NCBI GenBank assembly: GCA_016699265.1
Contig: CP064967.1
Location: 750,001 to 782,000 of the forward strand
From: Candidatus Saccharimonadota bacterium
GTDB taxonomy: Bacteria; Patescibacteriota; Microgenomatia; UBA1406; GWC2-37-13
Direction: 5' to 3'
DNA length: 32,000 bases
The notes below the pieces were generated by a model. That model ran no database searches and was not told where the DNA came from. It saw nothing but the letters and a program-made list of their open reading frames with translations. The first letter of the stretch is position 1, and each line of letters starts with the position of its first letter. Position numbers and translations under genes: made by a program. Shown piece after piece: positions 4,269 through 27,246 of the stretch.

Positions 4269-4657
4269 TTCAGGAATCGTTTTACAAATGTATATTTATA
4301 TTTACTATAAGAATACATCAAAAACATACCGATAGTATCAATTGCGATATCGCGAGGTTTTCCCTCTCTTGTTGGAACGAAAGTCTGGTGAAGTTCGTCA
4401 CTCGCTGCATATAGAAATGCAACAATAAAAGCCTTAGCCCAAGCGCTTTTCCGCATCGATACATTCGAATTATTTTTTAGGAAGGCGCGGAATAAGAGAA
4501 AATAAAGAGCCGCATATTCAATAACATGAAGCGTTTTGAAGAACACAAAATTCCATTCGTACACCTCAGAAACTTGGGTTCTTTCTCGGGCAGAAAGTAG
4601 GAAGATAGTGATCATCCACAGAACTGGAGGACCCCAATACCACAACCATTTCTTCAT
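4265..4657 (-). CDS. VanZ-like membrane protein
   Basis: Four hydrophobic segments and the VanZ signature SDELHQTFVPTREGKPRDIAIDTIG. It has 4-nt ATGA-type overlaps with both neighbours. Confidence 0.7.
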   Translation of the reverse strand: MKKWLWYWGPPVLWMITIFLLSARERTQVSEVYEWNFVFFKTLHVIEYAALYFLLFRAFLKNNSNVSMRKSAWAKAFIVAFLYAASDELHQTFVPTREGKPRDIAIDTIGMFLMYSYSKYKYTFVKRFLK

Positions 4658-6576
4658 AGAATGATTCTAATGAAGAGAAACCCCGCTGTCAAAAAAGAGA
4701 TGATAGAAGAAATTATCGTTGCGGTCTTTACCGTCCTGATCCTTGGATCTGTCCTCACCTTTTCCTTTTGAGTATCCTTATGGCCTTCAATCGATCGCGA
4801 ATGACTCAATGTTGGTCTTGTATAGTATCGGGAGGGCCTAACTAAATCATCGTTGTTTTCATAACTCGCGATTTCTTCACCAAGAATTGCGCTTTTAGTT
4901 CTCGTCGGACCAACGGTTATTCTCGGAGTCGAAGTTGTACTTGGAGTTGGCGATGGGGTTATCGAAGACTCGATTAAACAGGAGTTATTGAAATACTCTT
5001 TAGAAGGATTTTGAATACAGTAATTTGAGGAATCGAACGATGTGCGCCCTGCGCTTTTTCCCTTTTCCGATGAGTCATATGCAAATGTGTCTATGAGCGA
5101 ATCATCTGAGTTAAGAAGACGTACAGTGTCGCCTTCGTTGTTAAACATTGATATCGAAAGATCTATCGCTTTAAAAGAATATCCCGGAATAGTGAGGTTG
5201 ATTTTTTTTGGAGAAGATCCTCCATCTGCTACGTCGTCTATTTTCCAGTTTTGTAACTGCACTGAAAAAGAATTATCGTTATAGAGTTCTAACCACTCTT
5301 GTTCATTTTCATTTGGATATGCATACACCTCAGATAGATATACATACCTTATCTCTGGAATACCGGTCGGGCTTGGGAGAGGTGTTGGCGTTTGTAGTGG
5401 AGTAGTGGTTGGCGTAGGGGTTACGGTAGGTGTCGGACTTTCAATCACCATACATTCATTATTGCTGATATTTTTCGATGCAATCTGTAAACAGTAACCG
5501 GAGGATAGAAAAGAAATCCTACCAATACTCAATCCCTTCTGTGAGCTGGTATATGTAAATGAGTCAACTAATAGATCTCGGTTGTTTATCAGACGCACTT
5601 CATCACCGTCGTTATTGAAAACTGAACTTGTAAAATCAACAACCTGAAATGAATAGGCCGGAATGGTAACGGAGAATGACTTAGGGTTTGCCCCTGTATT
5701 TTCCACATCGTCAATGCTCCAGTTAGATAGGGTGACTGGAAAACTGTTGTCGTTATATATCTCGCCCCATTCATTCTCTCCATCGTTTGGGTTAGGATAA
5801 ACCTCAGATAAATAAACATTGTTTATTACGATCTCCGGTATAGAAGTTGGAATTGTTGTAGCCGTAGGGACAGGTGTGTTTGTAGGTACTATGGTTACGG
5901 TGGGTATCTGCGTGGGTGTTGAACTAGGAGCGTGAGTTGATGTTGGGATTTGAGTTGGTGTGGGAATTGAGGTACTCGTTGGCGACGTTGCATTGGTAGG
6001 GATTAATGTTGGAATCAGAGTAGGTAAAGGCGTACTTGTGGGGGTTGGTGTTTCGGTGGGAGTTGGAGACGAAGTCGAGGTTGGTGTTGGAGAAGGTATG
6101 TATGCACACGATAATCCAGTTAAGTTATATTTATCAAAATTTGCAGCACCTGTAGCCCATACCAACTGCCCATCTGGTATTCGCTGAAAAGTAACTCCTG
6201 ATCCGGAACTCGCTTTATAGTCGAAAGCATCTATGAGATGGGCCGATAGTGAGGTTGGAGGAGCTGATGAGTCAAACAACCTGACGGTATCGGAAGTAGT
6301 TCTATTGAAATTATAATTACCAGAAAAACTTACACAAGCATTTGGGTATAACTGAGTTCCAGATGGAATCGTAAAATAGGTTGTTCCCCCATTATCATCA
6401 ATATGCCAATTGGAAAGATCGACAATCTCGGTACCGGTATTTATCAGTTCTACGATTTGGGGAGATGGATCAATAAGAAACTCGTTTATCTTTATTGTTG
6501 AAGCCTGTCCAAAAACCAATGGAGCAAAAAGAATATAAATAAAACACAGTAGCAAGTATCGTAATTTCACAGTCAA
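4654..6576 (-). CDS. Secreted, C-terminally anchored protein with three lamin-tail-domain (LTD) modules and Pro/Thr-rich linkers
   Basis: TTG start, signal peptide (LLLCFIYILFAPLVFGQA), and LTD-like blocks: INEFLIDPSP...VELINTGTEIVDLSNWHIDD, then two duplicated modules VYLSEVY.NPN...W.E.YNDNSF.V.L.NW.IDD. The P/T linker is about 5839-6096. A C-terminal TM helix follows. Confidence 0.85.
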   Translation of the reverse strand: MTVKLRYLLLCFIYILFAPLVFGQASTIKINEFLIDPSPQIVELINTGTEIVDLSNWHIDDNGGTTYFTIPSGTQLYPNACVSFSGNYNFNRTTSDTVRLFDSSAPPTSLSAHLIDAFDYKASSGSGVTFQRIPDGQLVWATGAANFDKYNLTGLSCAYIPSPTPTSTSSPTPTETPTPTSTPLPTLIPTLIPTNATSPTSTSIPTPTQIPTSTHAPSSTPTQIPTVTIVPTNTPVPTATTIPTSIPEIVINNVYLSEVYPNPNDGENEWGEIYNDNSFPVTLSNWSIDDVENTGANPKSFSVTIPAYSFQVVDFTSSVFNNDGDEVRLINNRDLLVDSFTYTSSQKGLSIGRISFLSSGYCLQIASKNISNNECMVIESPTPTVTPTPTTTPLQTPTPLPSPTGIPEIRYVYLSEVYAYPNENEQEWLELYNDNSFSVQLQNWKIDDVADGGSSPKKINLTIPGYSFKAIDLSISMFNNEGDTVRLLNSDDSLIDTFAYDSSEKGKSAGRTSFDSSNYCIQNPSKEYFNNSCLIESSITPSPTPSTTSTPRITVGPTRTKSAILGEEIASYENNDDLVRPSRYYTRPTLSHSRSIEGHKDTQKEKVRTDPRIRTVKTATIISSIISFLTAGFLFIRIIL

Positions 6577-6582
6577 TTTATC

Positions 6583-6612
6583 ATTAACGAATTAACGTAT
6601 TAACGCATTAAT
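6583..6612. repeat. Tandem 8-nt word ATTAACGN x3.5 at the 3' flank of four-helix-bundle gene 1
   Basis: attaacga attaacgt attaacgc attaat, read directly. It overlaps the stop codon of the 6608-7000 gene. Confidence 0.9.
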
Positions 6613-7000
6613 TTTTAGTTATAAATTCTTTATTAATACGCTTATTTGTTAAATAATTGATAAAGCCACCAATTTGTCTAGACAAATTGTCAAGTAGATT
6701 GGATATTTTTACGAACTCTTCTTCAGTTACATAATCTATTTCTCTCGAAATATACATTTGACTACGTACTTCTCCAGAAGAGCCCTTTGCTATTTTTAAA
6801 TACCTAATGAATTCGTTGTTATTATTTTTTTCAAATCCTTCTACAATATTTGAGTTTATAGAAACAGATGCTCTTCTCAATTGATCCCTTAAGCCAAAAT
6901 CTTTACTAAAGTATTTATTGGAAGTAAGCTTATAAACTTCCTTAACCACCTTAATAGACTCTTTCCAAATGGGGAAATCTTCAAATCTAGTAATTTTCAT
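6608..7000 (-). CDS. Four-helix-bundle protein (23S rRNA intervening-sequence protein / Avd-like family)
   Basis: FEDFPIWKESIKVVKEVYKLT...FGLRDQLRRASVSINSNIVEGFEK...EFIRYLKIAKGSSGEVRSQMYI matches the family pattern. Confidence 0.85.
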   Translation of the reverse strand: MKITRFEDFPIWKESIKVVKEVYKLTSNKYFSKDFGLRDQLRRASVSINSNIVEGFEKNNNNEFIRYLKIAKGSSGEVRSQMYISREIDYVTEEEFVKISNLLDNLSRQIGGFINYLTNKRINKEFITKN

Positions 7001-12347: not shown

Positions 12348-12686
12348 TTAAAAGATCTCTGTTCCAAGGCCGAAAATTCGAGAAGCTACCTGAACGATCA
12401 AGTACGCCACTGCAAGAAGAATGACTCCAATGATACCGGATGTTATTTTTGCCTTAGCTGTTTTGATCTTCTCCGGAGCGCCTCTTGAAAGGATTAGATC
12501 AAATCCACCCCAGATAAAAACAAATAGAAGAATTACCAAAGAAAGACCGTATGCGAACGGCATAACCTGATTAACTACATCGGCAGGTGTTTGGATCGCG
12601 GTGCCATTAAACTGTTTGGCTGGTCCACAAATTTGCGGACCGTTCTCCCCTATAGTTACACACTGAGCAAGTAAAACTCCAATCAT
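12348..12686 (-). CDS. Small TrbC/VirB2-like 'type IV secretion system pilin' family protein
   Basis: 112 aa. A Cys pair sits in the N-terminal part, followed by two hydrophobic helices joined by RGAPEKIKTAKAKI, the signature loop of the CPR pilin family. ATGA overlap with the upstream gene. Confidence 0.6.
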   Translation of the reverse strand: MIGVLLAQCVTIGENGPQICGPAKQFNGTAIQTPADVVNQVMPFAYGLSLVILLFVFIWGGFDLILSRGAPEKIKTAKAKITSGIIGVILLAVAYLIVQVASRIFGLGTEIF

Positions 12687-13342
12687 CGTTGTATTCTCAA
12701 AATTAATTTCAACACTACAATCATACCACCATTTAGTAGGAGCGAGAAGATGAGAAAGGAATTAACGACAGAAAAAAACTGGGACATCAAGTTCACATCA
12801 AAAATGACAAGAAAAGATTTAACATCAATCTTTAACACGAAGAGCACTACGCCGATGACAACTATTATTGGTATTACATATACGAGATCGATGAGATCCT
12901 GTTTAGAAGAAAACATAGTAGATGAGATAGTAAAAACAATGTAGGAAAAAAGTGCTCCACTCCAGTAGTTTATATAGAGAAGTTTGAACGCATCGATAAG
13001 CCAAAACGCAAAAAGAGCGGCAAAAAAAGGTGCAATACCAACCATCAATCCTCTTACGACGTCTCTCTTTTCGTACGTGACCGTTCCCAGTTTAAGAGTA
13101 TTGCCTCTGACTTTTGGAATGAGAGTTATATCTCTTACCTTTAAATTCAAAATCATCGCCATCACCAGATGAGACATCTCGTGTATCGCGGTTCCTGGGA
13201 AATATAAAAGCGCAATCATTCTGTACGCCGCCTGTGGATGCTTGAGAAATCGCGAAAAAAAATAAAAGCAGGTATGAATCGTTTTGCGAGATAAAAAGAA
13301 AAGCGCCACACAAAGAATTAGAAATAATAGTACCTGGGTCAT
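12683..13342 (-). CDS. Polytopic membrane protein with HExxH zincin motif (putative membrane metalloprotease)
   Basis: FPGTAIHEMSHLVMA lies next to TM helices, and the rest is hydrophobic. This resembles M50B/DUF3267-type proteins. Confidence 0.55.
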   Translation of the reverse strand: MTQVLLFLILCVALFFLSRKTIHTCFYFFSRFLKHPQAAYRMIALLYFPGTAIHEMSHLVMAMILNLKVRDITLIPKVRGNTLKLGTVTYEKRDVVRGLMVGIAPFFAALFAFWLIDAFKLLYINYWSGALFSYIVFTISSTMFSSKQDLIDLVYVIPIIVVIGVVLFVLKIDVKSFLVIFDVNLMSQFFSVVNSFLIFSLLLNGGMIVVLKLILRIQR

Positions 13343-13710
13343 TGAGTAATGATAGCACTTGGAGAGGCTAGTGGAGTTAGCGTTGCTGACGGAGTTGAGG
13401 TTGGACTAATCATGGCGGGTGGGGTCGCAACCGTTGATGGTTGTTCGTTGTCCCCTGGCACTACATCTCTTATTACCTGCGTTTGAGAATTAGTAAGTGA
13501 ATCTGCTTTGCTTTCCTCGAGTTGTTTTTGATAAATTAGAAACCACATCAGTCCAGCTAGTATAAGCGTGATTAGAATCGCTACAATTATAAGAACTGCA
13601 TTTACATCGACGGCACCTTTTCCGCCCCGAAGGGGGCCCGTTGGGCTGAGCGAACTGGGTAACGGAGTGAAATTATCGGGCATTTCATCATTGTGACTAA
13701 TCTTTGCCAA
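13339..13710 (-). CDS. Single-pass membrane protein with Pro/Thr/Ser-rich extracytoplasmic tail
   Basis: 123-aa ORF with TM helix AVLIIVAILITLILAGLMWFLI. 4-nt overlap with the downstream gene. Confidence 0.5.
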   Translation of the reverse strand: MAKISHNDEMPDNFTPLPSSLSPTGPLRGGKGAVDVNAVLIIVAILITLILAGLMWFLIYQKQLEESKADSLTNSQTQVIRDVVPGDNEQPSTVATPPAMISPTSTPSATLTPLASPSAIITQ

Positions 13711-13774
13711 TTTGTCAAAACGAGATAATCATATCGCATACCTGATGAATAAACGGTAGAATGAATATGATCAT

Positions 13775-15073
13775 ATGGATAGAAAATTTGGCCTTATTCT
13801 GGGGGTATGTGTTGTTGGATTGTTTGCACTAATTGTTGCACTTAATTTTTTTACGGCCCCTCGGCCTAAAGATGAAAGCTCCTCATCACCTATTCCTACT
13901 AGAGCGTCAATAACTCGAACTGGTAATAACTTCGCCCAACCTAGAATGAGCGAATCCATGCGGAAAACCTTACAGCAAGAACAAACTAAGCTCCAACAAT
14001 CGACCCCCCTAACGAAGGAGCAGGTTGAGTCCCTACAAAAATTAAAGAGCACGCTTCGAACAAAACCTGAGGATAACGACGACTTTGCAATCTCATACTC
14101 TGAAGATCTTGATCAGTTCTTCGTCCAGCTAAAGTCCTCCGAGGCAACTCAGAAGTTTGAAGAATTCTTAGTTAAAGATCCAGAACTAATAAAGATTTAT
14201 GAAAGTGACAACTATGATTATTTTAAGACCGGCACTATTTCACCACAAACATTAATTACACAGGCGCAACGAGTGCTTGACGATTATCGAGAGAGAGAAG
14301 ATGAATCTCAGAAGGCTGACTCGGACTTAACAATAGTTGATTCTCCTCCTCCACAATCACTGTCCCCGACACTGCCTATAAATACAAACGACCCCTCGAG
14401 TCAGATAAAGCCGGTATTTAATATTTTTAAGACACTTGTAGGTCTTAATTCTATACCTCTGCCAACATCCACTCCAACCCCTGGTAAGATCTTAGTAGGC
14501 AACCCCACCTCACCGGTTCAGTCTACTCCTAGTAACCTCGATTCTCTTTTTGCCGAAGCTGGCCAACGGGTAGGAACTCCTCCTCCTCTCATTAAAGCGG
14601 TTATGGCCCACGAATGCGGAGTTCTCCTGTCCGAAACTTCTGCAAACATTCTGGCTTGGTCTCAGGCAGGAGCCGGACTCCCAATCACGCATAAATGCTT
14701 TGACGGAGGGGTTGCAAAAGGAGACGGACTCGATCTTGGTCCGATGCAGTTTTATATTCCTCGATATTTTGAGGTTTATAGTCAGTCGGTAAACCAATTT
14801 GGGAACTACAATAGGCCGAAACCGTATGTTGAGAACATCATAGACAGTGTCTACGCCTCAGCTTACAAGTTAAAGCTCGATAGTAAGTCGTCTGATTCAA
14901 ATTTTTCCTGTCTGGAGGTGAAGCGAGCTTCGTGGTGCTACGCCTGTGGTTGCAGTCGTTATGATAATGGCAATCTTGGAGCCTATGGCTGCCGCTTTGC
15001 ACCCGGACTTTTTCAATATCTATGGGGTTACTACACCATAGGAAGACCAGTGACCAACAATCCTCCTTGTTAA
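13775..15073 (+). CDS. Membrane-anchored lytic-transglycosylase-like (SLT/VirB1-like) cell-wall hydrolase
   Basis: N-terminal TM helix. The C-terminal part carries LIKAVMAHECG (a catalytic-Glu-like context), GPMQF (compare GLMQ) and SVYASAYKL. Confidence 0.65.
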   Translation: MDRKFGLILGVCVVGLFALIVALNFFTAPRPKDESSSSPIPTRASITRTGNNFAQPRMSESMRKTLQQEQTKLQQSTPLTKEQVESLQKLKSTLRTKPEDNDDFAISYSEDLDQFFVQLKSSEATQKFEEFLVKDPELIKIYESDNYDYFKTGTISPQTLITQAQRVLDDYREREDESQKADSDLTIVDSPPPQSLSPTLPINTNDPSSQIKPVFNIFKTLVGLNSIPLPTSTPTPGKILVGNPTSPVQSTPSNLDSLFAEAGQRVGTPPPLIKAVMAHECGVLLSETSANILAWSQAGAGLPITHKCFDGGVAKGDGLDLGPMQFYIPRYFEVYSQSVNQFGNYNRPKPYVENIIDSVYASAYKLKLDSKSSDSNFSCLEVKRASWCYACGCSRYDNGNLGAYGCRFAPGLFQYLWGYYTIGRPVTNNPPC

Positions 15074-15087
15074 GGCGCTCTGAATAT

Positions 15088-15117
15088 TTGACAAGTTAAG
15101 GCCGATTCCAATAGAAT
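15088..15117 (+). promoter_or_regulatory. Sigma70-like promoter TTGACA-N18-TAGAAT
   Basis: TTGACA 15088-15093 and TAGAAT 15112-15117, 20 nt upstream of ATG 15138. Confidence 0.5.
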
Positions 15118-15137
15118 GAGTTGATATTTACACATAG

Positions 15138-16442
15138 ATGAATAAAAAATTCACGATCATAATTGTAGTAACAACTGTATTGCTTGTGGCACTTCTTATT
15201 GTGTTAGGAATTCTTCGCTCCAAACCACAGACGGATAGTACGAGCGATCAGTTTGCCTCACCAACCAACATCCCAAATAACCAAAGAGGTGGCGGTAGCA
15301 GCAGGAGCAGCAGCAGCGGCAGCGGCAGCGGCAATAATAATAGTATTAGTGGTAATGGCACAGCTGGTAATAGTGGCAGAGGTAATGGTATCTCAGCGAC
15401 CCCTAGGCAAGTTGCTACCCCAACTCCTCTACCCAAAGTAAAGTTAGATGCTTTATCTACTATCCAGAGATTCCTACCATATAATTCCGACGCACTTGCG
15501 GTTGATTACTCAGCGATTACTAATAAAATCTATGTGCAGAAAAAGGGTGAAAAAGCAGATGAGGAATTTCAACAGTTTTTGACACAAAATAATCTTGTTG
15601 ACATCTATAATAAAAGTCCAGAATTATTTCTCACATCGCAGTCTATTCTTGCACCTATAATTACGAATGAAGAGCAAAAAATAGAGTTCTCACCAGAAGA
15701 AGTGAAAGAGGCTGTTCTAGAACCTCTGACATCTCCAACGTCAATACCTAATCCAAACGATCCTTCAAAACAAATGCTACCAATGGTGAATGTCTTCAAA
15801 ACATTGATGGGATTAAATACGATACTACTCCCCCCATCCGAAATCATTCAGTCACCATCTACGCAGTCAACGACTTCTCCTGTTGTACCTGTTAATATAA
15901 ACTACGGAAAAGACACTACGAACATACCTTGCGCCGCAGGAACCGACTACGGACCTGCAGATGGGTATACGAATGGAGTTCTTACACGAATACGCACATG
16001 TAGAGTTGCGGGCATGGTAGTTAATTCTCAGGTTTCGAAACAAGTAAGCGACATGCACGCTGCATGGACAGCAGCTGGTATTCCATTAAGTGGTGGGAGC
16101 TTTAGAACGATGGCCGGACAAATTAGTATTTATCAAAATTGGTGCAAAATTGATGGAATAGTGGGAAGTCCACCCCCATACCCAAAGCCTCCCGGTCAAA
16201 CAATTCGCTGTCCAGGTGGCGGAGCGCCGGGATATTCAAATCATCAAATGGGTATGGCTATCGACTTTAACTGTGCGGGGACGCTCATTCCTCGAAAATA
16301 CGCAGCAGCTTCTCAGAATAGATGCTTTCAGTGGCTTTCGACAAACGCGGGTAAATACGGCTTCTTTGAGTACGGTTATGGAAAAACAAGAGATGGGAGC
16401 TCTGGCTATGAAGGTTGGCATTGGTCGGTTAACGGGAATTAG
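15138..16442 (+). CDS. Membrane-anchored peptidase M15 (VanY / D-Ala-D-Ala carboxypeptidase-like) cell-wall hydrolase
   Basis: N-terminal TM helix, Ser/Gly/Asn low-complexity stretch, and a C-terminal GYSNHQMGMAIDF (SxHxxGxAxD) plus YEGWHWS (ExWH) zinc-peptidase signature. Confidence 0.75.
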   Translation: MNKKFTIIIVVTTVLLVALLIVLGILRSKPQTDSTSDQFASPTNIPNNQRGGGSSRSSSSGSGSGNNNSISGNGTAGNSGRGNGISATPRQVATPTPLPKVKLDALSTIQRFLPYNSDALAVDYSAITNKIYVQKKGEKADEEFQQFLTQNNLVDIYNKSPELFLTSQSILAPIITNEEQKIEFSPEEVKEAVLEPLTSPTSIPNPNDPSKQMLPMVNVFKTLMGLNTILLPPSEIIQSPSTQSTTSPVVPVNINYGKDTTNIPCAAGTDYGPADGYTNGVLTRIRTCRVAGMVVNSQVSKQVSDMHAAWTAAGIPLSGGSFRTMAGQISIYQNWCKIDGIVGSPPPYPKPPGQTIRCPGGGAPGYSNHQMGMAIDFNCAGTLIPRKYAAASQNRCFQWLSTNAGKYGFFEYGYGKTRDGSSGYEGWHWSVNGN

Positions 16443-16455
16443 CCATGAGCCTTCG

Positions 16456-16484
16456 TTGACTTTATACGTACAAATCCATAGAAT
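16456..16484 (+). promoter_or_regulatory. Sigma70-like promoter TTGACT-N17-TAGAAT, 6 nt from the start codon
   Basis: TTGACT 16456-16461, TAGAAT 16479-16484, ATG 16491. Confidence 0.55.
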
Positions 16485-16490
16485 AAAATC

Positions 16491-18131
16491 ATGCTTAAAT
16501 CTTTGCGAAGTTTCTCTCGACTCTTCTCTCAAATCTTCATTATGGTCGCTGTCTGTGTGGTGATCATAAATATATCGCTTGGAATGATGTTTAAAAACAA
16601 TACCCAAAAAGGTCCACGGGTTGATTTGGTAGCCGAAAATAGAAAACAAATATATAAAGAGATCAATAATCCAGAGTATCAAAAAACGAAGAATGGAAAA
16701 ATAATGGTGGCGATTTATCGTATGGGAATGTGCGGCATTCTTGGTGAAGCATGTACTAACAACCCGGCGGATGGCGAAAAGAACTTTAACCACAGTTTTT
16801 TTGGAGCTATTGCCTCGAGCATGACCTTCCCTTATGCAAATCCTCCGGCATCCGGTGTTGAGTGGGTGCGCTCCGGGCTACAAAATGCTGGCTTTATCCC
16901 AAATTCGTATGCTACAGATGGGATCGGTTTCTCTGCCATCAGACCATTGGCTTCCATTTGGACGATGTTTCGTAACATTGCCTTTACCCTCATTGTTCTC
17001 TTTATCGTAATTGTTGGATTCATGATCATGTTTCGGTTTAAGATCAATCCTCAGACTGTCGTGACACTATCAAATGCTTTGCCACGACTCGTAATTACCC
17101 TCATACTCATTTCCTTCTCATTTGCCATCGGCGGATTCCTCATTGATCTTATGTATATCGTGACCATCATTGGTGTTAAGGTTGTGGGGACGACTCTGCT
17201 CCCAATAGAAACTCAAAAAATGTTTATTGACAGCGTTACTACCGGAGGTACTGGAAGACTCTTCGATCTTGTGTTTTGGAACGGAGACACGTTTCAGTTA
17301 GGTCCTGCTCTCATGTCTATGTTACCGCCCGTAATAAATGCCACGGTTAGACTGATTGCAACTGCGGTTTCCATGTGGTTACTTACTAAATTTCCACCAA
17401 TTGGTAAGTACCTAATTGAAGGTCAGGCTGGATATATTGGGACTGCCGATGGTCTTGCTGGACCGATAATTTCTATCGCATCAGTGTTCATGATTGGAGG
17501 ATTGGCATTTTTATTTGTACCGCTCTTATTGTCCTTATTGATTTTATTATTAACCGGTCTTCTTGTTTTTTTCCGTATCTTATTCATGCTTTTTGCTGCC
17601 TATTTACGTATCGTAATATCGATAATGTTTGCTCCATTAATATTGCTTACAGGAGTTCTCCCCGGAAGAAACGCCTTTTCGAAATGGTTTAAATCTCTCG
17701 TTGCCGACCTCGCGCTCTTTCCGATCACGCTCATAATCATAACCCTATCCTCTGCTATACTCGCTATGAATAATAATTTCCAAAATATCTGGCAACCACC
17801 ATTCCTATACACTGGAGTGAATCAAAACGCCTTTAATGTACTCGTGGCGATCGGCTTGATGTACATGATTCCAGATATAGGGAAACTCATTCGTGAGTTC
17901 TTCGGTATTAAAGGATCTCCTCTTAAGTTCGGCTTTGGTACCTTCTTGATGGGTGGAACCGTTTTGAGTGGTGGCGCTATGGGAGGTCTTGGTAAGTACT
18001 CACAGATTAAGTACACCATGGGTCCACTTCTTGGGAAGATGGATCGGAAGGGACCGTTAGGCTGGATTCCTAAGATGTTCAGCGATGGAGGTGGAAGTGG
18101 TGGCGGACACGTTGCTAACGAACCAGAATAA
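16491..18131 (+). CDS. Large polytopic membrane protein, VirB6/TrbL-like by position and architecture
   Basis: 546 aa. An extracytoplasmic N-domain of about 150 aa is followed by many hydrophobic helices and a Gly-rich C-terminal tail (GGGSGGGH). The assignment is architectural only. Confidence 0.6.
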   Translation: MLKSLRSFSRLFSQIFIMVAVCVVIINISLGMMFKNNTQKGPRVDLVAENRKQIYKEINNPEYQKTKNGKIMVAIYRMGMCGILGEACTNNPADGEKNFNHSFFGAIASSMTFPYANPPASGVEWVRSGLQNAGFIPNSYATDGIGFSAIRPLASIWTMFRNIAFTLIVLFIVIVGFMIMFRFKINPQTVVTLSNALPRLVITLILISFSFAIGGFLIDLMYIVTIIGVKVVGTTLLPIETQKMFIDSVTTGGTGRLFDLVFWNGDTFQLGPALMSMLPPVINATVRLIATAVSMWLLTKFPPIGKYLIEGQAGYIGTADGLAGPIISIASVFMIGGLAFLFVPLLLSLLILLLTGLLVFFRILFMLFAAYLRIVISIMFAPLILLTGVLPGRNAFSKWFKSLVADLALFPITLIIITLSSAILAMNNNFQNIWQPPFLYTGVNQNAFNVLVAIGLMYMIPDIGKLIREFFGIKGSPLKFGFGTFLMGGTVLSGGAMGGLGKYSQIKYTMGPLLGKMDRKGPLGWIPKMFSDGGGSGGGHVANEPE

Positions 18132-18221
18132 AGTCGTTCTTATTCCCATCTTCTTTGTCTTATTGAGTAATCAGATCTCAAGGATAACGCGTTCGTTTGG
18201 ACGGTCTTTGGAATAGATCAG

Positions 18222-19175
18222 TTAGCTTAACCCAGGTATCTGAAGTATTGATACCCCAATCAAGCGTAATATAAATATCGAGAATATAATGAGTAGCAGT
18301 CCCGTAATGCAGGCTCTCAGATTTTCCTGAGCCTTCTTAATTTTCTCAGGATTGCCTTTAGATGTCTGGAGAATAAAGGCGGCATAGATGATACAAAGGA
18401 AGGTTGCTGCTCCTCCCACTCCCATTCCGATTCCGACTATAGATCCCGTAAATCCTGCCACATCAGTCTTGATGCAACCAATGCCCGTCCAGTACCCACC
18501 TCCAGAAGCACAGCTCTTACAGATTTGCATATCCCGTGATCCGGTCATATAGAGGGAACATAGTCTTTTCACACCATTTGCGTCCTCTTTTGCCGGTACA
18601 CACTTGCAGCTTGCGCTTGCGTAATCGGTCGTGGTTGGTTCTCCACCCTCTATACATGGCTGTGGAACTGCGACTGGCCCCATAGATTCAAGCGCCACGA
18701 GCGGACTTCGCTCAAAGGTTTTATCAAGCAGCAACTTGACCCCATCACTCAAACAGATATCAACGCTAGATGAAGGTCCACTCGAATCGCAGAATGGGTC
18801 AAGCGAGCATCCAACATCAATGATTCCGCCTATAGCATCTGTGACAGTACCAAGGCCAGGGAGATCGCTCACGCAAAAAAATTTATCGACCTGGCTAGAG
18901 GGCTTCTTGAGCATCTCGCCAGTACTGATATTTGTATTGCAGCATCTCGTTCCACTCGATCTATTGAGACCTTCGGGAAGTCCACAGGTAATCCCAATGG
19001 CATTACCGTCAAACTGTGCACTGAGACTGCTTACGGTATCTGTTGGAAACTGGGGTAGGGATGGGACAGGAGCTGTTGTTTGAGCAAAACTAAATCCCGC
19101 AGTAAATGAAAGACAAATAAAGAACAAAATCATTAAAAAGAGGCTTCTGAGTTTTATTCGTGACATCGTATTCAT
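18222..19175 (-). CDS. Secreted Cys-rich protein with C-terminal TrbC/VirB2-like T4SS-pilin domain
   Basis: Signal peptide, about 200 aa with more than a dozen Cys, then two helices joined by SKGNPEKIKKAQENL, the same loop signature as the 12348-12686 product. Confidence 0.65.
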   Translation of the reverse strand: MNTMSRIKLRSLFLMILFFICLSFTAGFSFAQTTAPVPSLPQFPTDTVSSLSAQFDGNAIGITCGLPEGLNRSSGTRCCNTNISTGEMLKKPSSQVDKFFCVSDLPGLGTVTDAIGGIIDVGCSLDPFCDSSGPSSSVDICLSDGVKLLLDKTFERSPLVALESMGPVAVPQPCIEGGEPTTTDYASASCKCVPAKEDANGVKRLCSLYMTGSRDMQICKSCASGGGYWTGIGCIKTDVAGFTGSIVGIGMGVGGAATFLCIIYAAFILQTSKGNPEKIKKAQENLRACITGLLLIIFSIFILRLIGVSILQIPGLS

Positions 19176-19192
19176 TATATAGGTATCTTTGA

Positions 19193-19807
19193 TTATTTTT
19201 TATCGGATTGCTCCTTTAATGCCGCTTTCATGAGGGTATATATCATTGCTATCAACATGAGAGGAGCGTATTTGGAAAGGAGCTCCTTCGAAATGTCCAT
19301 CTTCGTTGCTCCCAGTTTTTGACGCAGCGACTTACCACTCTCAAATTCTTCTTCATGGTGTTTAATTTTATGCCATTTCACACCCAGGAATTTTTTCTCC
19401 TCGATGTCCGGCACGGTAGATCCTTGATATGATAAATCATAGGCGCCCATCTTTGCAACGATTCGTTCTCGCTCTAAAACAGTGACGAAGTTGGCAACAT
19501 CTGCAACCTCCCATTCCCAAACTCCTAAATGGGTTCCAGCAAACTCAGCTGCAAGTGAGTTTGCGCGATCAATCGTCCCCAATTTTGTTCTCCAGTTTCT
19601 CGCCACATCATCTTTTTTAAAGTAGGCGACCGTTAGGGTCGACATATACTGAGCAATGCGTCCTGCCAACTCGTGACCATGTACCGACTCGATGGTATCT
19701 TTCATCTCTTTAATATGCTTGACTAACGGACTGAAGTCGTGATTTGGATCGATAGACACATGGTGTAGCGATCCCATAAATGCCTTCAGATTATGCGTCA
19801 CCTTCAT
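19193..19807 (-). CDS. Hypothetical tail-anchored protein
   Basis: 204-aa ORF with one C-terminal hydrophobic helix (YAPLMLIAMIYTLMKAAL). 52 further stop-free codons lie upstream (19808-19963) without any ATG/GTG/TTG. Confidence 0.5.
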   Translation of the reverse strand: MKVTHNLKAFMGSLHHVSIDPNHDFSPLVKHIKEMKDTIESVHGHELAGRIAQYMSTLTVAYFKKDDVARNWRTKLGTIDRANSLAAEFAGTHLGVWEWEVADVANFVTVLERERIVAKMGAYDLSYQGSTVPDIEEKKFLGVKWHKIKHHEEEFESGKSLRQKLGATKMDISKELLSKYAPLMLIAMIYTLMKAALKEQSDKK

Positions 19808-19979
19808 CTCGATCTGAGTTGTGTCGCTGAGTGCGCGCGCATGTACGCGTGAACCTGCATTTCTTAGCGCAATAAATGACGTATCTAACTCTTCGGCACC
19901 TAATGCAAATGGATACCCTTTGGGGCTAGTTAAGGTCGCAGCTACTATGTCAAGGTATTTCTCCTAGCCATAACGGAGT

Positions 19980-20177
19980 TTATCGATCTGAGAAGTGAAA
20001 CGGCCTCTCTTGTTGTTGTGTATCCGCTATGTGTCTGCGAATGGATTCCTCGGTGACCACATATGGTTTCGAAGGAGCAAAGCTGCTTAGATCTTTATCC
20101 TCATCTTTCTGTGAAGCTAAATGCTCCCTCATCTCTTTACTAATATCGTTTCTAACCGCAAACCTCAACATAGGCAA
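19980..20177 (-). CDS. Small acidic hypothetical protein (possibly a gene fragment)
   Basis: 65-codon ORF (TTG 20177, internal ATG 20171) wedged between the 801-aa gene and the 204-aa gene. Confidence 0.3.
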   Translation of the reverse strand: MPMLRFAVRNDISKEMREHLASQKDEDKDLSSFAPSKPYVVTEESIRRHIADTQQQERPFHFSDR

Positions 20178-20194
20178 GATCCTTCATCGCCTCA

Positions 20195-22600
20195 TCAAAT
20201 TTGATGGCGGAAATATCTCCCCATCTCCTCTCGAACAATCTTCCAAAGACTCTTACCGTTTTTCGATACTCGATCACGTTCAAGTCTGACAAACTTTGTT
20301 GGCATTCTTTGAAAAAGCATCCTCGAGTACACACGGTTCATAAACAACTTCTCCTGATCCTTTTCAGGAAGGTCTTTTATATAGTCCCATACGCTACCAT
20401 GAACTTCTCCAGATAAATATTTGTTGGCAAGATAGGTAAATATCTGCTCTTTTGTCTCTCTTGGAATGCCTTTGTCCGCTGGATTAATTGTTTTAACTGC
20501 CTCATACCCTATATTCTCGAGAGCCTTAAACTTATCAAATATTCCCAGTTCATGACCTTGGGCATCATAAAGCCATCCTTCCGTGGCATTGGTCATGCGC
20601 CAACCACCTCGTGTGATAAACGAACCTCCTTTTGCGTAGTTGGGAAGAATGTCTACAAAGAGCTGACCAAGCGTTTTATCCTTCGGATCGCTACCAAAAA
20701 CAACTTTGCCATTCTGAAACGAGTCTCGATACTGCGTCATCTTTTTCCATAGCTCAGTATGATCCCACTTACGTAGAAGCTTTTTATTTACTGCGTCGAT
20801 TGGCATATAGATAAGTGGCCCCATCGTAAGGCTCTCTGCCTGCCATCTCAAAAAGAAATGAAGAGGATTGAGTGTCTCCGTTGCTGCGTTATCATTTGTG
20901 AAGTAACTTGTGAATTTAGGAGCTCCATTTTCGACATTGATATGAGGATCGGCAAATGCAGCTATCTCTGCCTCCGATAAGAAGATGCCTCGTGCAAGGC
21001 CTACTCCCATTGCTAAAGCCCTCTGGAGTCTCCAATTATCGGACTCCGAACTCAGCTCTGGATACATCCTTTTAAGATCCTCAAATACTCGCTGCTGAAG
21101 CTTCGACTTATTCTCAAAAAGATCACTACTAAACATATTGGGCTGATGAATCCAATCAACCTTTGCAAACTCCTCTTCAAGATACTTTACATACATTCTA
21201 TAGGCGCTGATCGACTTTTCACTATCTGGTAGCAACATCATCGCATCAATATCTTCCGATTTAATACTCTCGGAATACCCAGCAACCTGGCTCCAGAATC
21301 CATCTTTACCAGCGGGTCGCAAGAAAAGGGACTGAACGTTATGAAGATATCTTCGGATACTGTTTTCATGGACTATCTCAGATGCTATTCCGGTTAAGAA
21401 ATCTGCAAGCGAAACCGACTCCACGCCTGCAACTGGCGTAATCTTATACTGAAGTTGTAACTTTGTTTCGTTTGATGATGGATCTCCAATCGGCAGTTCT
21501 TTCTCTCGAAGACTTTCGATGGAATAACGCTTATAAAGCTGCAGGCCTTGAAGACTTTCGGGAAGTTCGGTCGCCTGTTTCACGTTTTTTGACATAAGCT
21601 CAAGCGCGCCCTTAAACTGAGCCTCAACGGCACGAATGGAACTATATAAACTTCCTTCCTGCTCAATTTCTTCAAATGTTTTGTCCGGTCTTTGTTGATC
21701 GACACGTGAGAACATCTTGCCATAGGTGAGAACTATTTTTTCCTCAAACTCGGTGGAAACCAATTTGTCGAAATCAACCTGAGCAAGTCCACGATTCGCC
21801 GGTCTACTAGCTACATCGCTACGAATATTCTCAACCAATTTCCCAAGTCTTTCTATTGAGTACAGTGACTCCAAAACGGGTCTGTCTTCGAGTGTAAAAA
21901 AATTACTATAGTAAAGATCCCACTCGTTATCGAATCTGTTAAGCTCCGCGCTTCGCTCACCCCCATGTTGATCCTGAGGAACCATTGATGCTGAACCGAA
22001 CATTTCTCTGGCTTGATCGCCGCTCACCGCAAGCTTACCTTCATCTGCAGCCTTCACTATCGCATCCGACACATCTTTGACGATCTCCTCGCCAAACATA
22101 CCCCACTCTTGCCTCAAAGTCTCGTACTGTGACTGAAGATCATCAATCGACTGAGCTCCTTCAAGGAGACCCGAAACGATAGGCTGTAAAAAGGCCGCAT
22201 TCGTACCATTGAGCTGGGTACCAACCTTATGATACAGACTCAAAAGAACAGCCTTATTCGCCTCTGAAGGAACTTCAACGATGCCCATCTCCACGCCTTT
22301 TAACGCTCGAACTAGGTCTTTCTTTAGCTGTTCACGATCAGTAGGGCTCGCATCCGGTCCTCCGCGACTTTTATAAAGAGTTGCTTTTCTTTGTTCCTCA
22401 GCACTTGCCTTTTTATCTTTAACTGAATCCTTGATGCTTGCCGCTATGCGTCTCGTTTCCAAAGCATTATCGGCGACAGCGCGTACTTCCTGCTCCAACT
22501 GCTCCTGAATCTGTCTTGCAGACTCCTGTTGGTTCGCCTGATTGGTCGACTGACCTGGTTGTCGAACCTCTGGTTGTTGTACCTCGCGATTGTCTGGCAT
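20195..22600 (-). CDS. Large soluble orphan protein (801 aa), no recognisable domain
   Basis: Long uninterrupted ORF with a Gln/Glu-rich, disordered-looking N-terminus. It has no TM helix, no Walker A and no HExxH or HUH motif. Confidence 0.75.
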   Translation of the reverse strand: MPDNREVQQPEVRQPGQSTNQANQQESARQIQEQLEQEVRAVADNALETRRIAASIKDSVKDKKASAEEQRKATLYKSRGGPDASPTDREQLKKDLVRALKGVEMGIVEVPSEANKAVLLSLYHKVGTQLNGTNAAFLQPIVSGLLEGAQSIDDLQSQYETLRQEWGMFGEEIVKDVSDAIVKAADEGKLAVSGDQAREMFGSASMVPQDQHGGERSAELNRFDNEWDLYYSNFFTLEDRPVLESLYSIERLGKLVENIRSDVASRPANRGLAQVDFDKLVSTEFEEKIVLTYGKMFSRVDQQRPDKTFEEIEQEGSLYSSIRAVEAQFKGALELMSKNVKQATELPESLQGLQLYKRYSIESLREKELPIGDPSSNETKLQLQYKITPVAGVESVSLADFLTGIASEIVHENSIRRYLHNVQSLFLRPAGKDGFWSQVAGYSESIKSEDIDAMMLLPDSEKSISAYRMYVKYLEEEFAKVDWIHQPNMFSSDLFENKSKLQQRVFEDLKRMYPELSSESDNWRLQRALAMGVGLARGIFLSEAEIAAFADPHINVENGAPKFTSYFTNDNAATETLNPLHFFLRWQAESLTMGPLIYMPIDAVNKKLLRKWDHTELWKKMTQYRDSFQNGKVVFGSDPKDKTLGQLFVDILPNYAKGGSFITRGGWRMTNATEGWLYDAQGHELGIFDKFKALENIGYEAVKTINPADKGIPRETKEQIFTYLANKYLSGEVHGSVWDYIKDLPEKDQEKLFMNRVYSRMLFQRMPTKFVRLERDRVSKNGKSLWKIVREEMGRYFRHQI

Positions 22601-22811
22601 ATTTTGATTATAACAGCTATGAAAAATGGAATTTTTCGAAAGACGAAAGTGGCGTTTGAAGGCTCAAAATCTATGCTATACTATTAGCTTGGTGGCAATA
22701 ACTCACTTTAGCACCTCCCCGCAATCTAAACTCCACAGTTTGTAGCATATAATCCATTGACAACCTTTTTGAAGCTTGTAGCATAGAGCGTAGAGCTTAA
22801 AACTCATAACA

Positions 22812-23165
22812 ATGCTTAGCCAGACATCTTTCCATAGCGATCTAAAGGAATACATGGACAAATTCATCCATTCCATTTATGACCGCACGGCAACGTTTCC
22901 AAAAGAAGAGCAGTTTGGCGCTACTTCACAACTTAGAAGGGCCGCTCTTTCGGTTGTACTTAATTATATCGAGGGATATGCGAGGCAACGTAAAGCTGTT
23001 TTTAAAAACTTTATAGAGATATCCTATGGATCTCTGAAAGAAACAAAGTATCTACTTTACTTTTCTTTCAAGAGGGGCTGGATAAAAGAAAAACAGTGGA
23101 TGGAGTTAAATCAATCTGCTGAGACTATTGGGAAGATGCTATGGGGAATTCTTAGAAAGCTCTAA
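22812..23165 (+). CDS. Four-helix-bundle protein (23S rRNA intervening-sequence protein / Avd-like family)
   Basis: FPKEEQFGATSQLRRAALSVVLNYIEGYARQ...ISYGSLKETKYLLYFS matches the family pattern. Confidence 0.85.
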   Translation: MLSQTSFHSDLKEYMDKFIHSIYDRTATFPKEEQFGATSQLRRAALSVVLNYIEGYARQRKAVFKNFIEISYGSLKETKYLLYFSFKRGWIKEKQWMELNQSAETIGKMLWGILRKL

Positions 23166-24667: not shown

Positions 24668-24805
24668 TTACACAGATAATTTCTTCCGTCCTCTTGTTCG
24701 TCGTCGTGCAAGAACTTTCTTACCGTTTGCAGAGCTCATTCGCTTCATGAAACCGTGTTTTCGCATTCTGCGTTTTTTCTTTGGTTGGCTTACTTGTTTT
24801 CCCAT
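24668..24805 (-). CDS. rpmH: 50S ribosomal protein L34
   Basis: My translation gives [45 protein letters not shown] (45 aa). It is too short for the ORF track. Confidence 0.9.
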
Positions 24806-24823: not shown

Positions 24824-24891
24824 AGTCTATAATGTCCATAATGTCTGTAATGTCGTGACTTTATGGACCTTCGACTTTATAGACCTTAGAC
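24824..24891. repeat. Cluster of tandem words: 9-mers (AGTCTATAA TGTCCATAA TGTCTGTAA TGTCGTGAC) then a 16-mer x2 (TTTATGGACCTTCGAC TTTATAGACCTTAGAC)
   Basis: Read directly. The two groups are approximately reverse-complementary (GTCCATAA / TTATGGAC). The cluster lies between the valS stop and the rpmH start. Confidence 0.85.
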
Positions 24892-27109
24892 TTCTAATAT
24901 TAATTTGTTTGTAAATTGTTTGTAAACCGCATCAGTTATGAATGGAACAAATGGATGCAGCAACTTCAAGCTCTCTAAATATATCTTTGTGAGAGAATCC
25001 CGAACCTCTATATTATCATTTCGTAGCTCTTCTTTCAACTGCTCGATATAAAAATCGGCAAAACGGTGCCATATAAACTCGTACATGAGTCCAAAGGCGG
25101 CAGAAAATTTATAGTCCTTCATATTTTTATGGAACTCTTTTTCCATACTCTCAAATTCCTTCTCGAGCTCCTTAATTTTGTCATTCGTAGTATTTTTTTC
25201 GTCATCCTGACCGGTTATTTTGTCATCTCGAGCGCTAGCGAGAGATCCAGCGACCGAAGGGAGCGCCTCGCTAGATTCCTCCCCCGACATTTTGTCGGTA
25301 TCGGAATGCCCACTACCCTTATTCATCTCGAGAAATCGGCCAATATTCCAAACCTTGTTTGCAAAGTTTCTCATAGACCGAATCTTGTCATCCGAGATGC
25401 TCAGATCCGTCCCGTCTCCCACCTCAAAGATGAGTGCGGCACGTAATGCATCGGCTCCATACTTCTCAATCATAGCCAAGGGATTAATCACGTTCCCTTT
25501 TGATTTGCTCATCTTCTGTCCATTAACGCGTACCAGTCCGTGGAGATACACCGCCTTGAACGGAACCTTACCGGTTCTATATAGCCCAAACATAATCATT
25601 CTTGAAGACCCAACAAGGAAGAATGTCCGATACCCCGTCTCCATAACCGCAGTAGGATAGTAGTACTCGAAAATTCGTTTCCAATAGACTGTAATGTAGC
25701 GAACGGCCATTGTCCTGATGAAAACCACGTATCGAAGGTGTCGGTTTCCTGTTCAAAAACGCACTCACCACAGATCTGACACTTGTCTGGTTTGGACCAA
25801 CACTCACAAACCAGCGTTCAGTTTTCGGTTTTTGGTTGTCGGATTTCAGATTCTGATCACTGACATCTGATTTCTGACAGCTGTAAGCTGGTATGCGAAT
25901 TCCCCAGACATTCTGTCGAGAGATATTCCAGTCATGAAAGTTGGTCAACCACTGCACCGCAGATTTTTCAAATCTTTTGTTCGTAAACTTTACCTCGCCA
26001 TCTTCAACTGCCTTAATCGCTCGGTCTGCAAGCGGTCGCACCTTCACATACCACTGAGGCATAAGAATTGGCTCGAGCACTCGTCCGCATTTGTAGCAGT
26101 TGGCAACGGTGTGAACATAGTCCTCATCTACCTTTTCGAGCATTCCTTTATTCTTCATGTCCTCCGCAACCTGCTCTCTCGCCTTCTTGACCTTAAGTCC
26201 TTTGTAAGGACCCGCCAACTCAGTCATTCGACCAGTTTTATCAATGATAGTTTTAAACTCGAGATTGTGACGCTTCGCCATCTCAAAATCATTAAAGTCA
26301 TGTGCCGGAGTAACCTTAGCTACTCCCGTTCCAAACTCAGGATCTATCGCATCATCACCGATGACTCGTACCTTAAATAAACCGAGGAGACCCTCAACCT
26401 CGATCTCCTTTCCAATCCAGTCTTTGTAGCGCTTATCCTTTGGGTTCACCGCAACTGCCGTGTCACCAAACTTTGTTTCTGGTCGTACCGTGGCGAGAAT
26501 GAATGGACCGTACTTAAGATAGTAGAGAGGATCTTTTTGTTCGACATGCTTTACCTCAAGATCAGAGAAACTTGTCCCACAGTGAGTGCAGTAATTTACG
26601 AGACGATTATCTCTATAAACTAATTTATCATCAAATAGTTGTTTGAAGGTTTCCTTCACAATCTTCACCACATCCTCATCAAGCGTGAACTTTCTTTTCG
26701 ACCAATCGAGCGCATAGCCGAGTTTACGAAGTTGGTTTTCCATCTTTCCTCGGTTCTCGTGTACAAAGTCCCAGATCATTTTATACAGCGTCTCACGGTC
26801 GTAATCGAATCTGCTTTTGCCCTGCTTTGCAAGATGCTTTTCGAAAACAAACTGAGTCTCAATACCTGCATGATCTGCGCCCGGCAACCACAATACCTCA
26901 TCTCCATGCTGTTTTCGGTACCTGATCATAATGTCTTCGTATACATACATCGCATGCCCAAGATGAAGATCCGCATTTGCGTTAGGAGGAGGAAGGATAA
27001 TGGTAAACGGAGTTTTATCCTTGTTTGGTTGGGAGGTAAATATACCCTTCTCTTCCCACTGCTTATATAAAGATTCTTCTACCTCTGCTGGTTTGAATGT
27101 TTTATCCAT
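24886..27109 (-). pseudogene. valS: Valyl-tRNA synthetase, reading frame interrupted (as sequenced) near 25600-25820
   Basis: The N-terminal part (ATG 27109; PPPNANADLHLGHA, WLPGADHAGI, TPAHDFNDF, WNISRQ..WG.RIPAY) is in the 25577-27124 frame. DTFDTWFSSGQWPFATL appears only in a third frame. YYPT..METGY, KMSKSKGNV and the anticodon-binding part are in the 24886-25728 frame. Confidence 0.85.
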
Positions 27110-27246
27110 AAAATTAAAGCCCAAATATCAAAGCTCAAATGTCAAACAAAATCCAAAAAACAAAGTTTAAATATTTGAATTTAAGATTTTGAACTTTATT
27201 TGATTATTGGGATTTTGATATTCGAACTTCATTGTATTATACCAAG

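Follow-up and report, generated by a model that had tools for sequence, protein, structure and literature searches.

The described systems closest to the locus analyzed here are the type IV secretion systems (T4SSs) of Patescibacteria, for which the family PF18895 (T4SS_pilin) serves in the literature as the VirB2 marker (Wang et al. 2023, PMC10633639; Quinonero-Coronel et al. 2025, PMC12102498). Published Patescibacterial VirB2 arrays have an average identity of 25 %, and a pilin is encoded near virB4 in 1,135 of 1,948 assemblies, a proximity that is not strictly defining. In S. epibionticum, genes for a peptidase and a lysozyme adjoin virB4. The published T4SS inventory of Microgenomatia comprises little beyond VirB4, TrsD and pilin arrays; VirB6 is "scarce", "suggesting extreme sequence divergence", and one Roizmanbacteria genome has VirB4 and TrsD on their own, with no VirB2, VirB3 or VirB6 neighbors (PMC12102498). 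In the single species tested, epibiotic growth requires the Patescibacterial T4SS, a system whose role is described as completely unknown. Here, we describe an envelope gene cluster in a 32,000-nt stretch of chromosomal DNA (hereafter, the window; contig CP064967.1) from a Roizmanbacteria/Woesebacteria-type Patescibacterium. The cluster encodes two proteins with a PF18895-type module, two predicted wall hydrolases on a common anchor and a triad of genes that stays together across relatives and diverges sharply between near-clonal strains.

A conserved triad and its neighbors

The invariant core of the locus is a triad of genes encoding a 546-aa protein (poly546), a 317-aa protein (Cys317) and a cytoplasmic protein of ~1,140 aa; the 112-aa and 123-aa proteins encoded nearby are referred to as pilin112 and the P/T protein (Table 1). 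Scanning genomes with a single protein gave no match; an alignment-based scan succeeded, and 80 related loci (L numbers below) were compared together with ±10 kb around them. poly546 was present in 80 of the 80 loci fetched and was adjacent to Cys317 in 71 of the 75 that were evaluable. Next after this pilin-module fusion, a large gene was recognized by a hidden Markov model (HMM) in at least 49 of 62 loci, and at least 7 of the other 13 have a divergent large open reading frame (ORF) there. The triad was intact after inversion (L028, L033, L038) and after replacement of the upstream neighbors (L006, L059). The poly546 and Cys317 genes are convergent, with Cys317 and the ~1,140-aa gene in one operon; in L086, the corresponding two genes overlap by 4 nt. 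A first-pass annotation of this DNA, made from its letters and ORFs alone, had proposed a compact block of envelope genes and had named synteny in relatives as a check. Gene order proved to be strongly conserved across Roizmanbacteria and Woesebacteria and the triad to be cohesive. The block as first drawn is, however, partly a local juxtaposition that ClpB/ClpC splits in most relatives, and it omitted a core gene, the ~1,140-aa gene, which lies outside it.

In the window, the ~1,140-aa gene is broken: it has in-frame stops, and tblastn comparison to intact orthologs recovered ORFs of 801 and 204 aa with an ORF of 63-65 aa between them. Intact genes encode 1,134-1,163 aa in L086, L090, L091 and L088, and because an intact 1,136-aa version is found in the same 90 % cluster, the break is probably either an assembly (indel) error or a very recent lesion that makes the gene a pseudogene. 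The window also has leuS (24886-27124, minus strand) as two overlapping ORFs (24886-25728 and 25577-27124), compared to a single gene of 731-743 aa in relatives; since leuS is presumably essential, this split also points to frameshift errors in the assembly. The ~1,140-aa protein is free of Cys, without a signal peptide or transmembrane segment, and has a basic C-terminal tail. The family had no match in Pfam, PDB, PADLOC or PHROG, and a degenerate ATPase was considered and rejected, since a conserved P-loop is lacking as well.

PF18895 matched pilin112 at 37.5 bits (cut-off 26.6) and Cys317 at 25.1 bits, just under the cut-off. The two ortholog families aligned to each other in hhalign with a probability of 98.8 % (E 1.4e-16), and 16 of 18 Cys317 orthologs matched PF18895 (best E 3.5e-8). 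Two hydrophobic segments (residues 37-70 and 78-108 of pilin112; 244-271 and 284-317 of Cys317) are connected by the loops RGAPEKIKTAK (residues 69-77) and KGNPEKIKKAQ (residues 274-282), respectively. Both proteins also matched nearly the full NCBIfam model NF045849 (Mbov_0395 pilin-like) at E 1e-6, with pilin112 scoring 28.3 bits, below the cut-off of 40. For the canonical TrbC/VirB2 family PF04956, no match was obtained with pilin112 or Cys317 (1 of 18 Cys317 orthologs reached E 0.0084), and the hhalign probability of the pilin112 family against TrwL of R388 was 0.6 %. The two-helix pilin modules with a G(A/N)PEKIK(T/K)A loop recognized in the first-pass annotation are thus borne out by PF18895, hhalign and the orthologs, with canonical TrbC not matched.

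Cys317 has a signal peptide ending in ..FAQ and 17 Cys, and the Cys pattern is conserved in its orthologs. A signal peptide is absent from pilin112, whose orthologs keep a short N-terminal motif, M-x(3-5)-L-A-Q; speculatively, this motif might be a candidate processing site for the adjacent M50B-like protease. The signal peptides of the Cys317 family mostly end in A-Q, resembling the 'LAQ' of pilin112, and residues 11-20 of pilin112 are the sole variable patch of that gene between near-clonal strains. A tandem pair of additional PF18895 genes (products of 102 and 134 aa; 3524-4240 of L095), located ~6-7 kb past the right end of the window, adjoin genes for an isoprenoid-type amino-acid kinase, IspH and UppS and bring the pilin-module genes within ~40 kb of this chromosome to four.

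Among 446+ word-indexed homologs of poly546, none has a Pfam domain, and no Pfam, NCBIfam or PDB match was found for poly546 by sequence or profile. The family comprises 4,247 representative clusters at E<=1e-3 and is found in at least 305 species genomes. The AlphaFold2 (AF2) model is all-helical (pLDDT 70.6), and the extracytoplasmic N-terminal domain carries a conserved PYANPPASG motif and a Cys pair.

Two genes upstream of poly546 encode anchored hydrolases whose N-terminal regions are 34 % identical (E 5e-17) and constitute a common anchor module. The 434-aa protein matched PF02557 (VanY) at 56.4 bits (cut-off 25), has the zinc motifs SNHQMGMAID (367-376) and EGWHW (425-429) and is named 'M15 family metallopeptidase' by NCBI. 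For the 432-aa protein, no Pfam, NCBIfam or PDB-sequence match was detected, singly or as a profile, and hhalign comparisons with Slt70 and R388 TrwN were negative; assignment to SLT (PF01464) at the level of sequence is not supported. Its C-terminal domain has an invariant signature, MAHECG...GDGxDLGPMQF, and hhalign aligned residues 258-283 with residues 42-67 of E. coli MltE, placing E280 of MAHECG on the catalytic E64 (E 0.0021, probability 13 %). The AF2 model of this protein is poor (pLDDT 53.6, and ~30-70 in the C-terminal domain), and the top ~30 Foldseek matches of this poor model are nearly all GH23 proteins (best E 0.075, probability 0.92-0.95), including a Ralstonia GH23 chitinase, MltF, MltE, Slt and g-type lysozyme. 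We consider the C-terminal domain probably, though not provably, GH23/lysozyme-like on the strength of the signature and the model. Thus, of the two anchored hydrolases of the first-pass annotation, the VanY/M15 enzyme stands, and the SLT-like one lacks a profile match and has a weak GH23 fold and the MltE alignment in its place. A VirB1-type role, also suggested then, is weakly supported by the relatives, in which the catalytic domain on the anchor module differs (VanY, Peptidase_C39-like, CHAP or SLT-like) and genes with the module, identified by HMM, lie upstream of poly546 on the same strand in 51 of 72 loci. Immediately upstream of poly546, 44 loci have a stand-alone protein of ~145 aa made up of a membrane anchor, a P/T linker and the anchor module (e.g. 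L052 9501-9929, L047 9449-9883); it has no Pfam match and is absent from the window.

The remaining genes of the cluster constitute an operon ending with pilin112. The stop of the M50B-like gene and the start of pilin112 overlap by 4 nt, and the two genes adjoin in 25 of the ~42 loci showing pilin112. The 219-aa protein scored 28.2 bits with PF13398 (Peptidase_M50B), above the cut-off of 26 by a small margin, and is named 'M50 family metallopeptidase' by NCBI; with HEMSH at residues 54-58 (H54-E55-x-x-H58) in a polytopic protein, it is predicted to be a protease. The P/T protein, detected in 11 of 80 related loci, has no family match in Pfam or NCBIfam. Both the HExxH membrane protein and the single-pass Pro/Thr-rich protein had been described correctly.

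The usual order in relatives is recF, amino-acid kinase, pilin112 (with or without the M50B-like and P/T genes), ClpB/ClpC, one or two hydrolases (in some cases with the ~145-aa protein) and poly546, followed convergently by the Cys-rich pilin fusion, a ~1,200-aa protein, jag, yidC, leuS and DUF2298. In the window, the cluster is flanked on the left by rpoB (at the edge), a gene for an ABC-F protein, recF and an amino-acid kinase gene, and on the right by jag, yidC, rpmH, leuS and a gene for a DUF2298 membrane protein. The rpmH gene (24668-24805, minus strand, 45 aa) lies between yidC and leuS, and no rnpA was seen; a published survey lists rpmH and rnpA as genes often near virB4 in Microgenomatia. 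Further to the left (3390-6576, minus strand) are probable surface genes, whose products are a CAP-domain protein, one resembling VanZ and one of 640 aa containing three lamin-tail domains (LTDs). In L006, L059 and L064, this CAP/VanZ-like/lamin-tail block, together with an NTP-transferase gene, lies directly upstream of poly546 and replaces the hydrolases.

The GC content of the cluster is 0.42-0.47, compared to 0.35-0.45 in the rest of the window. The window proteins were found identical under NCBI locus tags IPH70_04445-04490 (labeled Candidatus Roizmanbacteria) and on one contig of a metagenome-assembled genome. All ORFs reported in the first-pass annotation are present where it had placed them, although 12348-19175 contains seven genes rather than eight; all seven products are membrane or secreted proteins as claimed, each having an N-terminal anchor or signal or being polytopic. 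Promoters had been assigned to several genes. Two near-consensus sites do lie directly before the VanY and poly546 starts, but the total of 25 promoter-like sites is at chance level (22.8 ± 4.4 in shuffled sequence).

Table 1. Features of the cluster in the window, with amino acid (aa) identity of variable products to two near-clonal relatives
Feature	Coordinates	Strand	Description	Identity to L090	Identity to L086
pilin112	12348..12686	-	112-aa VirB2-like pilin-module protein; two hydrophobic helices and basic loop; PF18895		
M50B-like metalloprotease	12683..13342	-	219 aa, polytopic, HExxH (H54-H58); PF13398		
P/T protein	13339..13710	-	123 aa, single-pass, Pro/Thr/Ser-rich tail; hydrophobic segment 29-62; first gene of pilin112 operon		
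SLT-like hydrolase	13775..15073	+	432 aa, N-terminally anchored; anchor module ~68-135, variable linker, Cys-rich C-terminal domain 255-432	95 %	77 %
Promoter-like site	15088..15117	+	TTGACA-18-TAGAAT, 20 nt upstream of VanY gene; 11/12 matches		
VanY/M15 peptidase	15138..16442	+	434 aa, N-terminally anchored; anchor module ~102-158; PF02557	94 %	70 %
Promoter-like site	16456..16484	+	TTGACT-17-TAGAAT, 6 nt upstream of poly546 start; 10/12 matches		
poly546	16491..18131	+	546-aa polytopic membrane protein of a large unannotated Patescibacterial family; first triad member	77 %	48 %
Cys317	18222..19175	-	317-aa secreted Cys-rich protein with C-terminal VirB2-like two-helix module; PF18895 just below cut-off; second triad member	76 %	38 %
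~1,140-aa gene, broken copy	19193..22600	-	ORFs 20195-22600 and 19193-19807, frame-shifted middle ~19964-20221; third triad member	81-84 % (two fragments)	47-48 % (two fragments)
Strain-variable island	14100..22800	.	Identity drop relative to near-clonal relatives; core ~16.0-22.5 kb		

Strain-level variation at a fixed site

The window was compared with the near-clonal relatives L090 and L091 (JGI metagenome and Logan assembly) and L086 (GCA_017991865.1). The backbone proteins (LTD, ABC-F, DUF2177, DUF1295, RecF, amino-acid kinase, M50B, P/T protein, Jag, YidC and DUF2298) are 98-100 % identical in these strains, and pilin112, whose operon is on the stable backbone, is 96 % identical. Nucleotide identity is 99-100 % at 4-14 kb and 23-28.5 kb of the window and intermediate at 14-16 kb; over the stretch from 16.0 to 22.5 kb, identity to L090 drops to 67-87 %, and the L086 sequence is unalignable. 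The divergence tapers into the hydrolases, where the linker is variable and the catalytic domains are 90-100 % identical. Given flanks of 98-100 % identity and triad alleles of 38-84 % identity in three strains, the triad appears to be horizontally exchanged and fast evolving. In the other species L088, L092 and L093 (backbone 76-92 % identical), the triad alleles are 55-73 % identical to those of the window and thus nearer to them than the alleles of the near-clonal L086, which are as distant as those of L094, whose YidC is 61 % identical. The simplest explanation of these sequence comparisons would be repeated horizontal replacement or, alternatively, long-maintained allelic classes at a fixed site.

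For a diversity-generating retroelement, no reverse transcriptase was found in the window and no long imperfect direct repeat (template/variable) at 12-24 kb. Two genes for four-helix-bundle proteins of the '23S rRNA intervening sequence'/bAvd-like type are present (6608-7000, minus strand; 22812-23165, plus strand). The second marks the exact right border of the variable island, and L086 is without this gene. A separate patch at 25.0-26.0 kb is 94-95 % identical to L086, with surroundings at 100 %.

Possible roles of the locus

As a whole, the locus may encode a wall-spanning surface module that cooperates with a VirB4–TrsD pair encoded elsewhere, a reading that we prefer only tentatively and hold at somewhat below an even chance. 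Three conserved units adjoin each other between recF and rpmH-yidC-jag. Unit A, on the stable backbone, is the translationally coupled operon of the P/T-rich anchor protein, the M50B-like intramembrane protease and the short pilin-module protein; unit B is one or two wall hydrolases on the common anchor module (here GH23-like and VanY/M15), transcribed toward unit C, the fast-evolving triad. The pilin-module proteins would insert with the two termini outside and the basic loop on the inner side, and the M50B protease may trim the 'LAQ' N-terminus of pilin112. We envision poly546 as a membrane platform for the pilin modules, VirB6-like in role without demonstrated homology, and the anchored hydrolases as cutting peptidoglycan locally in the manner of VirB1 or PrgK. 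The disulfide-rich ectodomain of Cys317 would be an exposed, strain-specific contact surface, and the exposed part of the module seems to be under diversifying selection. Energy would come from an MPF-FATA-like VirB4-TrsD pair located elsewhere in the genomes of the lineage. A bolder version, which we consider unlikely, has the triad as an undescribed, fast-evolving host-contact apparatus of Microgenomatia with horizontally exchanged alleles, poly546 being the missing, extremely diverged VirB6 of their T4SS, the pilin fusion a strain- or host-specific adhesin in a pilus-like structure and the large protein, with its basic tail and no signal, a translocated substrate or a cytoplasmic partner of a new kind.

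A split T4SS, with the motor encoded elsewhere, is plausible on circumstantial grounds, because VirB4 is found in most Roizmanbacteria, VirB4-TrsD stands alone in one genome and VirB6 is scarce. Of seven Roizmanbacteria genomes with this cluster that were checked in Table S1 of PMC12102498, five have VirB4. A number of results weigh against the cooperation with VirB4–TrsD, beginning with the two cluster-carrying draft genomes scored VirB4-negative in that study. In addition, VirB4, VirD4, TrsD and VirB11 are all lacking from ~52 kb in this strain (the window and 10 kb on each side), and a secretion ATPase is lacking within ±10 kb of the 80 related loci, as the first-pass annotation had noted for the window itself. 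The left 10 kb beyond the window contain rpoB, rpoC, rpsL, rpsG and fusA, and the right 10 kb contain genes for an MFS protein, GT2, DNA ligase, Fic and UppS and the two PF18895 genes. A phmmer search of every ORF in the 80 loci with VirB2, B3, B4, B5, B6, B8, B11 and D4 of R388 gave no match at E<=10. Walker A motifs in all six frames of the window are limited to ABC-F and RecF, again as stated before. A VirB4 hidden in the variable gap of relatives was ruled out: the Walker-A gene of 900-1,300 aa at this position is ClpB/ClpC. Other Walker-A ORFs in the 80 loci correspond to RecF, translation-GTPase-type P-loops and assorted single ORFs at no consistent position.

The first-pass annotation had placed the 546-aa protein where VirB6/TrbL would be; its polytopic nature is confirmed, but membership in VirB6/TrbL is not supported by the sequence, profile, Pfam and hhalign tests. 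With PF04610 (TrbL/VirB6), 32 family members gave no match even at E<=10, although control proteins did match, and hhalign probabilities were 0.2 % for TrwI, 1.2 % for PrgH, 3.1 % for Tn916 Orf15 and 0.2 % for a 22-sequence VirB6 profile. As the only positive sign, the best PDB fold match found by Foldseek was TrwI/VirB6, but this match is non-significant (E 0.18, TM 0.19/0.33), and DotA was second. The TrwI alignment pairs the P-x8-PG-x3-F-x2-W motif of poly546 with GP..F...RFF..W of VirB6, and the Orf15 alignment covers the same stretch; as both score at chance level, this pairing is not counted as evidence. The neighbors of poly546 are hydrolases, the pilin-fusion gene and housekeeping genes, with no VirB3 or VirB4 alongside. 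A VirB6 label for poly546 denotes role and position, not family membership. Further points weighing against the cooperation with VirB4–TrsD are that the ~1,140-aa protein has no recognizable domain or P-loop, that pilin112 is single-copy with a mean column identity of 53 % in the ortholog alignment compared to the 25 % of VirB2 arrays, and that the hydrolases could simply act as autolysins in growth or division.

Many of these observations would fit a T4SS-independent envelope module, in which PF18895-type subunits, the polytopic protein and the hydrolases build or remodel the surface or wall without VirB4, and the ~1,140-aa partner could be its own scaffold or energizer. This explanation, which we doubt, comes close in likelihood to the cooperation with VirB4–TrsD. 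It would accommodate the lack of a secretion ATPase near any of the 80 loci and in 52 kb here, the failure of poly546 in all VirB6 sequence tests and the presence of the cluster in the two genomes scored VirB4-negative. It is also consistent with the triad as a core trait that at least 305 species genomes have at a fixed site beside housekeeping genes, and with a conserved cytoplasmic partner that is translationally coupled to the pilin fusion by the 4-nt overlap in L086. Arguing against it, annotation among relatives of the two-helix module is confined to T4SS or conjugation pilins, VirB4-TrsD is encoded by most genomes of the lineage, and the cytoplasmic partner is without an NTPase motif.

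Alternatively, unrelated envelope genes might have been kept together by frozen gene order, an accidental neighborhood that we regard as improbable. RecF, YidC and LeuRS (and likewise the amino-acid kinase, Jag and DUF2298) equal the cluster in synteny, so that a good part of the conserved order could stem from collinearity throughout the lineage, which again weakens the case for a dedicated module. The same holds for ClpB/ClpC, which separates the pilin112 operon from the hydrolases in most Roizmanbacteria (44 loci, including L054 3151-6096, L052 5183-7924 and L014 6132-9890); its absence from that position in the window, L086, L090, L091, L092 and L093 is a sub-lineage arrangement. The M50B and P/T genes are, moreover, missing from many loci. 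Yet the triad survives inversion and neighbor replacement as a unit, and its genes, the hydrolases less so, diverge jointly in near-clonal strains with flanks of 99-100 % identity. Hydrolases with interchangeable catalytic domains retain both the anchor module and the place upstream of poly546, and starts and stops overlap within unit A and between the cytoplasmic and pilin-fusion genes. Frozen gene order accounts for the juxtaposition of unit A, but not for the triad or its co-variation. A variable accessory island, be it an anti-phage defense system, a holin-plus-endolysin lysis cassette of a prophage or what is left of a mobile element, might also be suggested by the strong and sharply delimited variability between strains, the bAvd/IVP-like gene at the right border and small two-helix proteins beside wall hydrolases, reminiscent of a holin-endolysin pair. 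We judge such an island very improbable: there is no PADLOC match, the sole PHROG match is weak (the VanY hydrolase to a tape-measure family, E 3.8e-4), no integrase, reverse transcriptase or template/variable-region repeats are present, the GC content is unremarkable, and essentially every related genome carries the genes at this one site, which sets them apart from patchy defense islands.

Returning to the surface module that cooperates with VirB4–TrsD, the locus supplies candidates for missing envelope parts, namely the poly546 family, a pilin module joined to a Cys-rich domain and hydrolases with swappable catalytic domains. The sharp variation between near-clonal strains is the pattern expected of a part that touches a host or phage, and it offers a ready means of matching alleles with hosts in metagenomic data. 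Even without a T4SS connection, a major uncultured lineage would have in this locus a surface module that is conserved and unexplained.

Comparison with known systems

PF18895 pilins and Patescibacterial T4SSs are already known. For the triad, the pilin-fusion architecture, the common hydrolase anchor module and the strain-level allelic replacement, no description was found in a limited literature search. The locus shares with the Patescibacterial MPF-FATA-like T4SS (S. epibionticum SEML1_0006-0019) the PF18895 proteins, a monoderm envelope, a peptidase together with lysozyme-like hydrolases, a chromosomal site among genes that are usually near the origin and sequence-variable pilin-type components. 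It differs in that the neighborhood has no VirB4, TrsD, PrgI/VirB3 or recognizable VirB6, that one of the pilin modules carries a large Cys-rich ectodomain as a fusion, that the pilin genes are single rather than in tandem arrays, and that the partners are an M50B protease and a cytoplasmic protein of ~1,140 aa. The two-helix module also resembles Mbov_0395 of the Mycoplasma integrative and conjugative element (NF045849), although the scores of 28 bits are under the cut-off of 40 and the context of such an element is lacking.

Like VirB6/TrbL proteins (TrwI, PrgH, Orf15), poly546 is polytopic, with at least five hydrophobic helices and with long helices, and is encoded beside pilin-type genes. 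As in Tn916, where Orf15 ('extended VirB6') is beside Orf14, its gene is next to one for a wall hydrolase. Unlike VirB6/TrbL, poly546 gives no PF04610 signal, is not beside VirB3/VirB4 and has an extra extracytoplasmic N-terminal domain. The hydrolases are comparable to PrgK, TcpG and Tn916 Orf14 (SLT/lysozyme plus CHAP/NlpC-P60) in being anchored, in their place beside a polytopic component and in the mix of glycosidase and peptidase or amidase across relatives. In the window, however, the activities are on separate proteins with a lineage-specific anchor module, the GH23 call is weak, and a VanY/M15 carboxypeptidase is not usual among T4SS hydrolases.

Strain-variable surface loci at fixed chromosomal sites include capsule/O-antigen clusters and pilin and adhesin loci. 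The gene content of the cluster is unrelated to theirs, but the pattern is alike: near-identical flanks enclose a divergent multigene cassette, and the divergence decays from its core.

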